NCBI GenBank assembly: GCA_029856145.1
Contig: JAHQWK010000002.1
Location: 181,936-245,935, forward strand
Reading direction: 5' to 3'
Source: Promethearchaeia archaeon
GTDB taxonomy: Archaea > Asgardarchaeota > Lokiarchaeia > Sigyniarchaeales > SOKP01
Length of the DNA: 64,000 nt
The notes beneath the pieces are model-generated. The model was given only the letters and a program-made list of their open reading frames with translations, was not told the origin of the DNA and did not search any database. Below are positions 9,791 through 48,126 of the stretch, one piece after another. Made by a program: the position numbers and the translations under genes. The first letter of the stretch is position 1. Every line of letters starts with the position of its first letter.

Positions 9791-9895
9791 AGTCCGGTAG
9801 TCTAGTATGGATAGGGCGCTGGCTTGCGGAGCCAGATATCGAGGGTTCAAACCTCTTAGCATATAGCAAGGAGGGAATATATCCCCCCCGGGCTA
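9791..9895 (+). tRNA. tRNA-Arg(GCG) with a 30-nt non-canonical intron (9851-9880) at position 58/59
   Basis: Acceptor AGTCCGG/CCGGGCT-A; anticodon arm CTGGC-TT GCG GA-GCCAG; BHB central helix GTTC/GAAT with bulges AAA and ATA; splicing restores the TTCAAAT loop. Confidence 0.9.
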
Positions 9896-45432: not shown

Positions 45433-46257
45433 TTATAGATCTAATTTTTTATTGAGCTTCTTCTGGCTTCTCTTTTCAAGAAATTTTGTCCAATCAAACG
45501 CCATGATAAAAAACATAACTGTTATAGTTACTAATAATAGTATGGCTTCAGTTATTATGCTAGGGATATCATTAGTTTGAATTCCTTGAGCTACAAATCC
45601 AATAGCTACTAAAATTGGCCAGCAACAATAAAATAAAGTGGTAAAATTTTTTCCCAACCAGCCAGGAATAATACATTTCCAAAAAGGGTATTTAATCATT
45701 CCCAGAGGTAAGAATAATATATCATCTGGGAGTGGAGTTAACGCAAATAAAAATATGTATAATGGTGTACGTTTTTCATTTTCTAAAATTAATTTACCAA
45801 ATCCATCTATATTTTTTAGCAATTCAGAATTCCTTTCTTCAGTAATTTTCTTTGTTCCATATCCAACGAAATAGCCAGTAGATTCTCCCAAGGCGCTCCC
45901 TAACCCTCCTATTAATGCTAGTCCTAGTATTTCTAACCAAAAAAAACCATTTTGTAATATTTGTATCAATTCTAATCCACTATTAATATATTTAAGATAT
46001 ATTGAATTTGAAAGTGAAAACAACACAAATGGAAAAGGAATAGGGAATCCAATTGATGCTGACCCTAAAAAACATATTCCAAGAGAAATTAATAAAGCCC
46101 AAAAATAATTTGAACCTTCTGTGATAATTGTTAAGTTTTGTCTAGTACTGATAATAAATTCTTGGAAACTTGGGACAAATAAAAACAGAAATATGTAGAT
46201 AATTACAGATAAATAAAATCCTGTAAAAACTATCATTAATTTCTTTGGAACAGCCAT
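45433..46257 (-). CDS. VTT/DedA (VMP1/TMEM41-like) membrane protein
   Basis: GSALGESTGYFVG, FALTPLPDD, GK motifs. Confidence 0.85.
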   Translation of the reverse strand: MAVPKKLMIVFTGFYLSVIIYIFLFLFVPSFQEFIISTRQNLTIITEGSNYFWALLISLGICFLGSASIGFPIPFPFVLFSLSNSIYLKYINSGLELIQILQNGFFWLEILGLALIGGLGSALGESTGYFVGYGTKKITEERNSELLKNIDGFGKLILENEKRTPLYIFLFALTPLPDDILFLPLGMIKYPFWKCIIPGWLGKNFTTLFYCCWPILVAIGFVAQGIQTNDIPSIITEAILLLVTITVMFFIMAFDWTKFLEKRSQKKLNKKLDL

Positions 46258-46264
46258 AATCTTA

Positions 46265-46639
46265 TTACTTCTTAGAAAATTTTGTATTTAAGCCATTTCT
46301 CGCTTCTAATAATATATCTAGATTAGTATCTACCTTTCCAATTTTATTTACTTTATTTGCCATTTCTATATCTTCTAAAGCTATTATCAATTCATCAGTT
46401 TTTGGATTGTAAAGAATGTCTCCTTTTTCTACATTATCTGTCGATTTAGAATTGGGTCCTTTATATATTTCTACTCCTGGTAACGTCCAATATTTTTTTG
46501 AACCAAAACTAAATCTACCTCTTAATACAAGGGGTAATTTATCAATTATTGCATCTGCTGTAAGAGGTGCAATATATCGGATAATATTTCCTTCTATTAT
46601 GCCAATTCCAAATAAATCAATCTTTATTGGTATACTCAT
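46265..46639 (-). CDS. Cyclophilin-like fold protein
   Basis: APLTADAI..KLP, VEKGDILY.P, VNKIGKV. Confidence 0.78.
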   Translation of the reverse strand: MSIPIKIDLFGIGIIEGNIIRYIAPLTADAIIDKLPLVLRGRFSFGSKKYWTLPGVEIYKGPNSKSTDNVEKGDILYNPKTDELIIALEDIEMANKVNKIGKVDTNLDILLEARNGLNTKFSKK

Positions 46640-46744
46640 TTTTTATAAATAATGTAATTTCTGTTATTTATATTATTTTAAAATAATTCTTATAATCATC
46701 AAATTTTTGTTGAAAATATTGAAGATTTTATTATTTTCCTTAAT

Positions 46745-46759
46745 AACAAGATTTAAATA
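46745..46759 (+). promoter_or_regulatory. Archaeal BRE/TATA promoter of the candidate ncRNA
   Basis: Purine-rich AACAAGA followed by TTTAAATA (46752-46759), centred about 27 nt upstream of G46783. Confidence 0.6.
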
Positions 46760-46782
46760 GTCAAAGTTTCATATAATTATTT

Positions 46783-47274
46783 GGACAATAGGTCAATTTT
46801 GCATTGGAAATGGATACAAAATTACGGTTTTTACACCGAATTAATTGTTAACTGAAACTGAATTAGTTTTTTACTACCGATAAATTTTTTTATTCGGGCT
46901 CTAAGAATCTTAAATCAACCTAATTTATCATTCAAGGGTATTATTAATCATTCATTCCTTTTTTAACGTTGGATAAATATTTATAACACTTCTAAAGTAG
47001 TAAGTTGAAACAGGAATTTATTTTTCACATACATATCTACTCGAATTTATGCAATCTTGGTATATGAGACAATTTGACATTAATACTTATATTCGTGTCG
47101 AATTATGAGTTTTAATTATTTAGTGCCAGAGACATTGAAACTTGAGTACTCTGTATCGAAATTAGTTTAGATTTGTAAATAGGAGCTTTGATTACCTGAT
47201 TGCTTCATTGGAAAAAATATAGCCAAAGTCCTTTGATTCAATTATACTTTGATTAATCGGAGCACCTATTGTCC
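46783..47274 (+). ncRNA. Candidate large structured non-coding RNA (~492 nt), family unknown
   Basis: 11-bp terminal helix GGACAATAGGT/ACCTATTGTCC, about 12 nested helices with G-U pairs on the + strand, no ORF of 60 aa or more in the track, TATA upstream, T13 downstream. Confidence 0.68.
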
Positions 47275-48126
47275 TTTTTTTTTTTTTAGGTTTTTTAGAT
47301 CCTTTTTATTATCAATATCATAGAATTGATGTTTATTTTCAATTTCAAAAGCAAGTACTTTCTTCCCATTAAAAATTATAGAGTTTAAAGTTTCCCAAAT
47401 TGTTTTATTTAGATTTTCTCGATTCATATTTAAGATTTCATTAATTGAATCATAGCTTAAAGCAGTAATAGGTATTAATTGATTTAAGGTATTCTCAGAA
47501 AGAATATCTCTTATTTTTAATTGAGAAATTTTTTTTAATATAATTTCTGAACCTAATTTAGTAATTTCAGCATTAGAAATAATTCTATTTATACTATATA
47601 GTTCTTCTAATGTTTTTAATCCTATAATTCTATAAAAAACAAAGGGATATTTATGAATCAAGGTATAATTCTTAGAAATTATGTATATAATTTCTTTTAA
47701 AATACTATAATCAAATATGGTGTCACCTGGGATTACTAAATAGTAATTGTTCCTCGTAAAAAAGCTTTTATTCTTAGTTATCGATAAAAAGGAGTATAGT
47801 GGACCTAATTTATACTGATTTTCCGTATCAATTATTATCAGTTTATCTTGTAAGGTATGGTCATTTTTTTTTATTGTTGTAAGATACTCACGGATACTAA
47901 CTCCTAAATGACCAATAACTATAGCAATTTTATCTATTTCAAAATTGAGTAGAGTTTTAATATTATAATAGAGAATTGAAATACTATTTAATGGTTCAAT
48001 TTTTATTAGTGGTTTAGGAGTGGTTTTTGTAATTTTTTTAAGTCTAGTTCCCTCTCCAGCGCACAATATAACAATAGATAGGTTTTTTTTAACCTCATTC
48101 TTTAGTATTGACAATACTATTCCCAT
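47266..48126 (-). CDS. NTP-transferase (nucleotidyltransferase) family protein
   Basis: VILCAGEGTRL...PKPL, PGD, FYDID. Confidence 0.85.
   Translation of the reverse strand: MGIVLSILKNEVKKNLSIVILCAGEGTRLKKITKTTPKPLIKIEPLNSISILYYNIKTLLNFEIDKIAIVIGHLGVSIREYLTTIKKNDHTLQDKLIIIDTENQYKLGPLYSFLSITKNKSFFTRNNYYLVIPGDTIFDYSILKEIIYIISKNYTLIHKYPFVFYRIIGLKTLEELYSINRIISNAEITKLGSEIILKKISQLKIRDILSENTLNQLIPITALSYDSINEILNMNRENLNKTIWETLNSIIFNGKKVLAFEIENKHQFYDIDNKKDLKNLKKKKGQ
47275..47287 (+). terminator. Oligo-T terminator of the candidate ncRNA
   Basis: 13 consecutive T immediately after the terminal helix (also encodes the poly-Lys end of the convergent gene). Confidence 0.45.

Follow-up and report, generated by a model that had tools for sequence, protein, structure and literature searches.

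A putative end-paired non-coding RNA of about 490 nt with a conserved gene neighbourhood in one family of Loki-type Asgard archaea

The window analysed here, a 64,000-nt stretch of DNA from a Loki-type Asgard archaeon, very probably contains a single-copy, independently transcribed non-coding RNA gene of about 490 nt, which runs on the + strand from 46783 to about 47280. The gene lies in a 626-bp gap between a cyclophilin-like gene (46265-46639, minus) and an NTP-transferase gene (47266-48126, minus), and neither strand of 46653-47265 holds an ORF of 30 aa or more. The RNA element itself spans 46783-47274 (+), has a GC content of about 26%, with flanks that are not lower, and gives a single BLAST match in its own genome. 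The locus combines the generic features of archaeal ncRNA genes: BRE and TATA elements about 24 nt before +1, an oligo-T run, no conserved ORF, conservation beyond that of the neighbours, covarying helices and a transcript. A preliminary description, made from the letters of the window alone, had suggested that an Asgard archaeon encodes here, on the + strand, a large and structured RNA not described before, and this proposal is now supported by conservation, synteny, covariation of the terminal helix P1, G-U pairs and contigs from RNA libraries. The observations on which it was built, namely the absence of ORFs, a perfect 11-bp helix between the ends, an upstream promoter-like box, a T13 run after the 3' end, repeated short words and an overlap with the last 9 nt of the NTP-transferase ORF, are all present as described.

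Both ends of the gene are framed by transcription signals. In 20 congeners the promoter sequence TTAATAA.AA.ATTTAAATA is invariant or nearly so, and a TTTA[AT]ATA box is present in the homologs read from genera g20, g22, g18, g21 and g24. The distance from the end of the TATA box to the first paired base of P1 is 21-23 nt in 64 of 64 homologs, which is the usual TATA-to-start distance in archaea; transcription is predicted to start at G46783. From the sequence we infer the strand of the transcript and its exact ends. At the 3' end, the RNA's 3' arm and the NTP-transferase ORF share 9 nt, and because the TAG stop codon of the NTP-transferase sits inside the 3' arm of P1, the two convergent genes share their ends. 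The C-terminus of the NTP-transferase is a poly-Lys tail (..KKKKGQ before the stop), for which the strand opposite the RNA's T13 terminator codes (47266-47290). On the opposite side of the gap, the promoter and leader of the cyclophilin-like gene (46640-46700, minus) show 82-85% identity over 20 species, equal to that of the coding sequence.

P1, the helix that joins the two ends, takes the form of a perfect 11-bp inverted repeat in the window (GGACAATAGGT / ACCTATTGTCC, at 46783-93 / 47264-74). Across genera it comprises 10-16 bp and covaries. Its 10-bp core is 97-100% paired in 39 distinct arm pairs, with positions 0 to +6 paired in all 39 of them and compensatory changes at three positions. 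The outermost pair turns from G-C into A-U in g24; position +3 is C-G, U-G or U-A, leading from C-G through U-G to U-A in g19; and the innermost position, +9, where 38 of the 39 are paired, takes the forms G-C, U-A, A-U, G-U or U-G. Alignment A3, with its 67 sequences, has GC at this innermost pair in 31 sequences, UA in 26, AU in 5, GU in 2, UG in 2 and another combination in 1. Extensions on the outer side of the helix are matched as well (GAUGG/CCAUC, GAGG/CCUC and GAAAAGG/CCUUUUC), and some clades lengthen P1 into the T run, with a C or AUC placed exactly opposite the G or GAU of the 5' extension. Clades with a slid 5' arm, in which GAAAAGGACAAU replaces GGACAAUAGG, still begin the helix at the same distance from TATA; there the slid arm pairs with AUUGUCCUUUUC and draws part of the T run into the helix, and the C at this place occurs only in those clades. 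An internal AAUAGG (47178-83) is able to pair with the same CCUAUU as the 5' arm. As an alternative partner of the 3' CUAUU, however, the internal AAUAG was rejected, since the deciding column is paired in 38 of 67 homologs with it and in 66 of 67 with the 5' arm.

The same pairs indicate the strand. The P1 core contains 10 G-U cells and a single A-C cell, so its G-U pairs fit the + strand only, in agreement with the polarity that the preliminary description had read from such pairs. Of 67 homologs, 59-65 retain a tandem U-G in the 3' hairpin (47188-89 with 47259-60), which would turn into A-C if the opposite strand were the RNA. Additionally, a covariance model of the RNA's 3' domain (CM R1) scores 42-122 bits on the + strand and only 28-40 bits when these loci are read on the opposite strand. 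RNAfold, a check suggested earlier, gives -102.9 kcal/mol and z = -3.15 against dinucleotide shuffles, a signal that is real but modest, and because the reverse complement reaches z = -3.04, folding energy is uninformative on the strand.

Conservation of the locus extends well beyond the window's own genome. By BLAST, the region is present in all 36 genomes sampled from the same GTDB genus, and the order of cyclophilin-like gene, gap and NTP-transferase gene is kept in the 19 loci examined within it. The length of the gap is kept too; its ends (46625-46834 and 47225-47284) share 75-89% identity with the window, a level equal to or above that of the neighbouring coding DNA, and its middle is only 45-69% identical. 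At the level of the order, 87 of 151 genomes have a CM R1 match, always a single one, and all of these genomes belong to family f1; by genus, the counts are 47 of 52 in g1, 33 of 42 in g20, 5 of 8 in g22 and 1 of 1 in g29. The block of VTT, cyclophilin-like, RNA, NTP-transferase and M24 peptidase genes is intact in 38 further loci in which the RNA was located.

Within the same family, genera g18, g19, g21 and g24 carry a strongly diverged homolog in the same gap, recognised by reading. In these loci a promoter box is followed, after about 22-24 nt, by the 5' arm and a GCAUUG(G) box, and 480-630 nt further on by the matching 3' arm and the T run. The promoter is the canonical TTTAAATA in g18, g21 and g24 and only a TATA-like TTTATAAA in g19, and CM R1 reaches only 13-18 bits on these syntenic loci. 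The pattern GGAYAATAGN{3,16}GCATTG, which describes the 5' arm and the box, matches 77 of 134 f1 genomes and adds genus g23; the 17 matches inspected outside f1, which have neither promoter nor partner arm, are due to chance. The RNA is found in at least nine genera of one GTDB family (f1) of Promethearchaeota, Loki-type Asgard archaea represented by sediment MAGs, and it was not found outside f1 among the genomes searched. MAGs that share one GTDB genus or family carry the submitter labels Promethearchaeota, Hermodarchaeota, Hodarchaeota or Thorarchaeota.

RNA libraries also contain the element. Six metatranscriptomic runs include part of the stretch, and the contigs of four of them, from four independent sediment studies, were mapped on 46200-47900 (Table 1). 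They are confined to 46816-47214, and in these four studies no contig falls on 46200-46770 or 47283-47900, so that neither flanking gene is covered; the stretches 46783-46815 and 47215-47274 are likewise uncovered, which is uninformative about the ends of the RNA. Two more contigs represent the 3' domains of relatives, one of which continues into a GAGACA box. Although the contigs carry no strand, no ends and no reliable abundance and could include DNA carry-over, the recovery of the non-coding gap alone in four studies is what would be expected from an abundant, stable RNA. Since contigs bridge the internal T run, read-through RNA exists.

Table 1. Positions in the window of the promoter, the parts of the RNA, the terminator and the mapped RNA-library contigs
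Feature	Position	Strand	Remarks
Promoter	46740-46759	+	Purine-rich BRE-like TTAATAACAAGA, then TATA box TTTAAATA (46752-46759)
P1 5' arm	46783-46792	+	GGACAAUAGG; pairs with 47265-47274
Single-stranded box	46799-46809	+	UUGCAUUGGAA; directly 3' of P1; C, A, G and G of CAUUGG invariant in 67 homologs
5' hairpin region	46813-46850	+	GAUACA box and CGGU (46825-28) / ACCG (46835-38); averaged base-pair probabilities, consistent within g1
First U-rich loop	46877-46897	+	CCGA (46877-80), U7 (46885-91), UCGG (46894-97)
Central hairpin domain	46954-47017	+	Averaged pair probabilities and single-sequence folds
Box 1	47092-47103	+	Consensus CUCUUGUUGAAU; window UUCGUGUCGAAU; conserved in all four genera aligned
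Box 2	47122-47141	+	Consensus GAUACNNGAGACAUNNAAAC; window AGUGCCAGAGACAUUGAAAC; G, A and C of GAGAC invariant in 67 homologs
3' domain	47185-47263	+	Imperfect hairpin of ~80 nt; most sequence-conserved part of the RNA
3' helix a	47185-93 / 47255-63	+	94% paired
3' helix b	47196-47207 / 47234-47245	+	70% paired; 6 of 7 pairs change on both sides
3' helix c	47210-12 / 47229-31	+	86% paired
P1 3' arm	47265-47274	+	CCUAUUGUCC; contains the stop codon of the convergent NTP-transferase gene
Oligo-T terminator (T13)	47275-47287	+	T-rich run directly after the 3' arm in all homologs read
X15 contig	46817-47185		369 nt, 100% identical
X16 contig	46855-47214		360 nt, 100% identical, depth 20
X19 contigs	46816-46966, 46981-47129		Two of 151 nt
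X20 contig	46903-47129		227 nt, close strain

Between the arms of P1, invariant boxes alternate with helices that vary by clade. The UUGCAUUGGAA box next to P1 is also present in the diverged homologs of g18, g19, g21 and g24, and a second CAUUGGA lies at 47206-47212. The fold of the adjoining 5' hairpin region is not kept family-wide, and g20 pairs differently. About 98 nt from the 5' end, 61 of 64 homologs have an internal T run of 6-12, and the stems of this first U-rich loop take the form CCGA/UCGG, UGUGA/UCACA or UCUGG/CCAGA depending on the clade; support for the stem is modest, because one of at least 5 bp is found in 72% of cases compared with 48% for shuffled flanks. After a variable stretch follows the central domain, which pairs AUUCCU with AGGAAU and UUUAAC with GUUGAA in the window and reads UGUUCC..GUGCU ... 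AGCAC..GGAGCA in most relatives. On A3 its outer helix is 75% and its inner helix 77% paired. The inner pairs change on both sides (GC/UA/AU and CG/UA), with GUGCU/AGCAC replaced by GUGUU/AACAC, AUGCU/AGCAU or UAAC/GUUG.

Further downstream, box 1 has two pairing options: with box 2 it is 86% paired and shows no covariation, and with the upstream AAUUUGACA it is 65% paired with weak covariation. At the family level, the boxes of the box 2 region include GAUACNNGAGACA. In many relatives a second U-rich hairpin loop lies between boxes 1 and 2, and the stems 5' of box 2 again vary by clade (GGUAU/AUACC, GAGUA/UACUC, CGUGU/ACACG and UAGCA/UGCUA). Oligo-T runs occur within the RNA gene at 46885-46891 and at about 47107-47127, and these could possibly represent an attenuator, the end of a short isoform or a protein-binding site. 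In the window RNA, CATTGGAAA occurs twice and CTTTGATT three times, as counted earlier. Several boxes of the 5' part also recur in the 3' part without a change of order, namely AAUAGG (46787/47179), UGC..CAUUGGA (46799/47201) and GAGACA-UUGA-AC (47064/47129), a hint of either an ancient duplication within the RNA or alternative pairings.

The structure was tested as a whole with P1, the central domain and the 3' hairpin, a set of 44 pairs, on alignment A3 (67 sequences). In this set 84% of cells are paired, compared with 38-53% when partners are slid. Against a shuffle control that ignores phylogeny, there are 95 doubly changed cells where shuffles have 54.5, and the covariation score is 0.135 where shuffles give 0.095; 0 of 500 shuffles reach either value. 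Pairs that show any double change number 12, no more than in the shuffles, and the 3' hairpin taken by itself hardly covaries within the genus. An all-against-all scan of column covariation ranks P1 first and otherwise returns mostly spurious pairings with the T run. The MAFFT alignment is poor in the variable middle third, and the core fold stays ambiguous there. RNAalifold on the plain MAFFT alignment recovers only the base of the 3' hairpin at full length and nothing in the core, and group-wise alifold folds disagree with one another in the middle.

These data also qualify the hand-drawn fold of the preliminary description. All of its 14 helices can form in the window sequence, yet only about five of the 14 are kept in relatives, a helix-by-helix count that rests on the MAFFT alignment with its poor middle. 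Across 67 homologs, helices 1 (terminal, 90%), 2 (71%), 3 (66%), 5 (65%) and 14 (68%) are paired clearly above the slid-partner background. Helices 4, 6-9, 11 and 13 reach 40-54%, which is the background level (slid partners 38-53%), and helix 12 exceeds it only slightly, with 57%. Helix 10 has a conserved domain as its counterpart, but the register is shifted in most relatives.

Searches for known RNA families, which had been recommended as a check, return no match in the RNA. Rfam 15 finds nothing at gathering score in the window RNA and nothing at E up to 10 in 46500-47450, and within the RNA of 17 other diverse homologs (18 with the window) there is no match at E up to 10 either, the only matches being chance ones outside the RNA. 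At this E limit, the window and the 17 homologs show no match to U6 or other snRNAs (ACAGAGA box, AGC triad with ISL) or to group II domain V. ARAGORN predicts 0 tRNA or tmRNA genes in 46500-47500, and Rfam also gives none. The sole Rfam match at gathering level in the 64-kb window is a partial tRNA at 9798-9857 (29.7 bits, model positions 8-63). Neither Rfam 15 nor the searchable literature was found to describe an RNA of this kind. The RNA family has no detectable relative, and its mode of action could still prove familiar in kind.

In general build, the RNA resembles archaeal RNase P RNA (RF00373) and SRP RNA (RF01857), with which it shares a length of 300-500 nt, a single copy, its own promoter, a helix that joins the ends and unpaired boxes between variable helices; a housekeeping-type character and abundance in transcriptomes can be listed among the common traits. 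Unlike these universal RNAs, it is restricted to one family, has about 26% GC and contains internal U runs; it matches neither in sequence or structure, and both coexist separately with it in these genomes. A second comparison is with OLE, ROOL, GOLLD and the raiA-motif RNA, large orphan RNAs that are bacterial or phage-borne and are all included in Rfam 15. Like them, the RNA is several hundred nucleotides long, lineage-restricted, abundant and recognised through conservation and covariation, but it matches none of them and is archaeal, strictly chromosomal and syntenic, with a terminal helix that starts at +1.

Sm-class snRNAs, archaeal RNAs bound by SmAP/LSm proteins and Ro-bound Y RNAs offer a third comparison. 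With the Sm-class and SmAP-bound RNAs, the RNA shares U-rich single-stranded A-U(n)-G/A tracts beside stems and an oligo-U end, and with Y RNA the pairing of its 5' and 3' ends. It also contains words that we take to be U6-like (AUUGGAA..GAUACA, and GAUACNNGAGAC compared with GAUACAGAGA of U6), a likeness noticed post hoc that may be due to chance. Unlike Sm-class and Y RNAs, it is four to five times longer and has no Rfam match to snRNAs or Y RNA at E up to 10.

Taken as a whole, an independent end-paired ncRNA that may act as an abundant RNP scaffold is the best explanation of the locus, and we consider it likely. The mechanism itself, in which the RNA would act in trans as a stable and abundant ribonucleoprotein subunit or scaffold, is proposed more tentatively. 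P1, running from +1 to the terminator, would seal both ends against exonucleases, while proteins or a target RNA may dock at the two U-rich loops (A-U6-12-G/A) and at the invariant unpaired boxes. Sm-like (SmAP/LSm) proteins are candidates for binding the U-rich loops. The Sm-site consensus is RAU4-6GR; an A/G-U6-12-A/G run that may serve as such a site is present at about +98 in 61 of 64 homologs, with a second one 5' of GAGACA and flanking stems modestly above shuffled ones. The U runs appear to function in the RNA, since they are kept although oligo-T terminates archaeal transcription and is hence costly. Transcription in archaea should stop at the conserved internal T6-12 run, so that an RNA of only about 105 nt may be a major product; its formation, with an end at the first U run, is possibly regulated. 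It is improbable that the RNA is a family-specific RNP core of a more particular kind, either a new large ribozyme or an Sm/LSm-loaded RNA related or analogous to eukaryotic Sm-class or spliceosomal RNAs, as the U-rich sites and the U6-like GAUAC..GAGAC box might suggest.

Several other readings compete with the RNP scaffold. The RNA could be a new large ribozyme, guide or antisense RNA whose invariant boxes GAGAC, GCAUUGG and UGUUGAAU make up an active site or bind a target, for instance rRNA or tRNA, by base pairing. Invariant nucleotides in apparently unpaired boxes amid varying helices agree with this, and the size and multi-domain build resemble those of catalytic RNAs, but no known ribozyme or guide family matches and no C/D or H/ACA boxes were seen on reading, so this remains unlikely. 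Less probable still is a cis-acting or antisense regulator of the neighbours, which would work through its overlap with the 3' end of the NTP-transferase mRNA or as an RNA that arises divergently at the promoter of the cyclophilin-like gene. The strict synteny over the family and the 3' arm lying over the last 9 nt of the NTP-transferase ORF point in this direction; however, the whole five-gene block is syntenic anyway, the overlap amounts to only 9 nt and the terminator, RNA libraries contain the RNA and neither neighbour, and conserved boxes and helices over 490 nt exceed what such a role needs. That the RNA is an mRNA encoding one or several very small proteins is very improbable. Chance ORFs reach 91 aa in some homologs, but the window copy has none that reaches 30 aa, the longest ORF of each homolog has a median length of 33 aa on the + and 36 aa on the - strand, indels of all lengths occur throughout the alignment, and what is conserved is boxes and paired arms, not a reading frame.

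A DNA element, either an origin with inverted ORB-like repeats or a domesticated MITE, has about as little probability and is largely refuted. Inverted terminal repeats do surround an AT-rich stretch of about 470 bp, and CATTGGAAA loosely recalls what we take to be ORB cores. Against a mobile element, which the preliminary description had named as the outcome that would overturn its proposal, stands the one copy per genome, both by BLAST in the window's own genome and by the covariance model in 87 genomes, with the same flanking genes everywhere. A replication origin was rejected as well: the neighbours are the cyclophilin-like and NTP-transferase genes, no Orc1/Cdc6 gene adjoins, promoter and terminator frame the element exactly, the compensatory changes of the arms via G-U make sense only in a + strand RNA, and RNA libraries contain the region without its flanks. 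The possibility raised earlier of a very divergent RNase P or SRP RNA, to which RNase MRP RNA may be added, is refuted for RNase P and SRP and has next to no probability overall. The size class, the helix closing the 5' and 3' ends and the lack of any RF00373 match in the window's own assembly speak in its favour. Nevertheless, RF00373 (gathering score 84 bits; P4 helix, CR-I to CR-V boxes) has no match in the window RNA or in 17 homologs, nor has any other Rfam model at E up to 10 in the 18, and 29 of 36 congeners that also carry the RNA have an RF00373 match of 87-136 bits at another locus; in genome G005, for example, RNase P RNA lies at 1529701 and the element at 1742138. RF01857, whose model covers the helix 8 motif, matches nothing at this locus; its only match in the genome, the SRP RNA, is on another contig (G000, C23:12880-13199, L022), with 83.8 bits. 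Since this is below the Rfam gathering score of 96.5, standard annotation would miss the SRP RNA of this genome. The window's own assembly is 97% complete, and its RNase P RNA is probably unassembled rather than absent. In another genome, two adjacent head-to-tail RNase P RNA matches (G017:C66:15325-15981; 130 and 91 bits) may be a tandem duplicate.

To our knowledge, very few large ncRNAs other than rRNA, RNase P RNA and SRP RNA have been recognised in archaea, and no description of a large ncRNA was found for the Asgard group, to which eukaryotes are more closely related than to any other known prokaryotes. With its promoter, predicted ends, closing helix and invariant boxes mapped, the RNA is defined well enough for direct experiments. 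RNAs of such a kind usually work with dedicated proteins, and a conserved, syntenic RNA of 490 nt that appears in sediment metatranscriptomes implies a cellular machine or a regulatory layer that is missing from the current annotation of these archaea.
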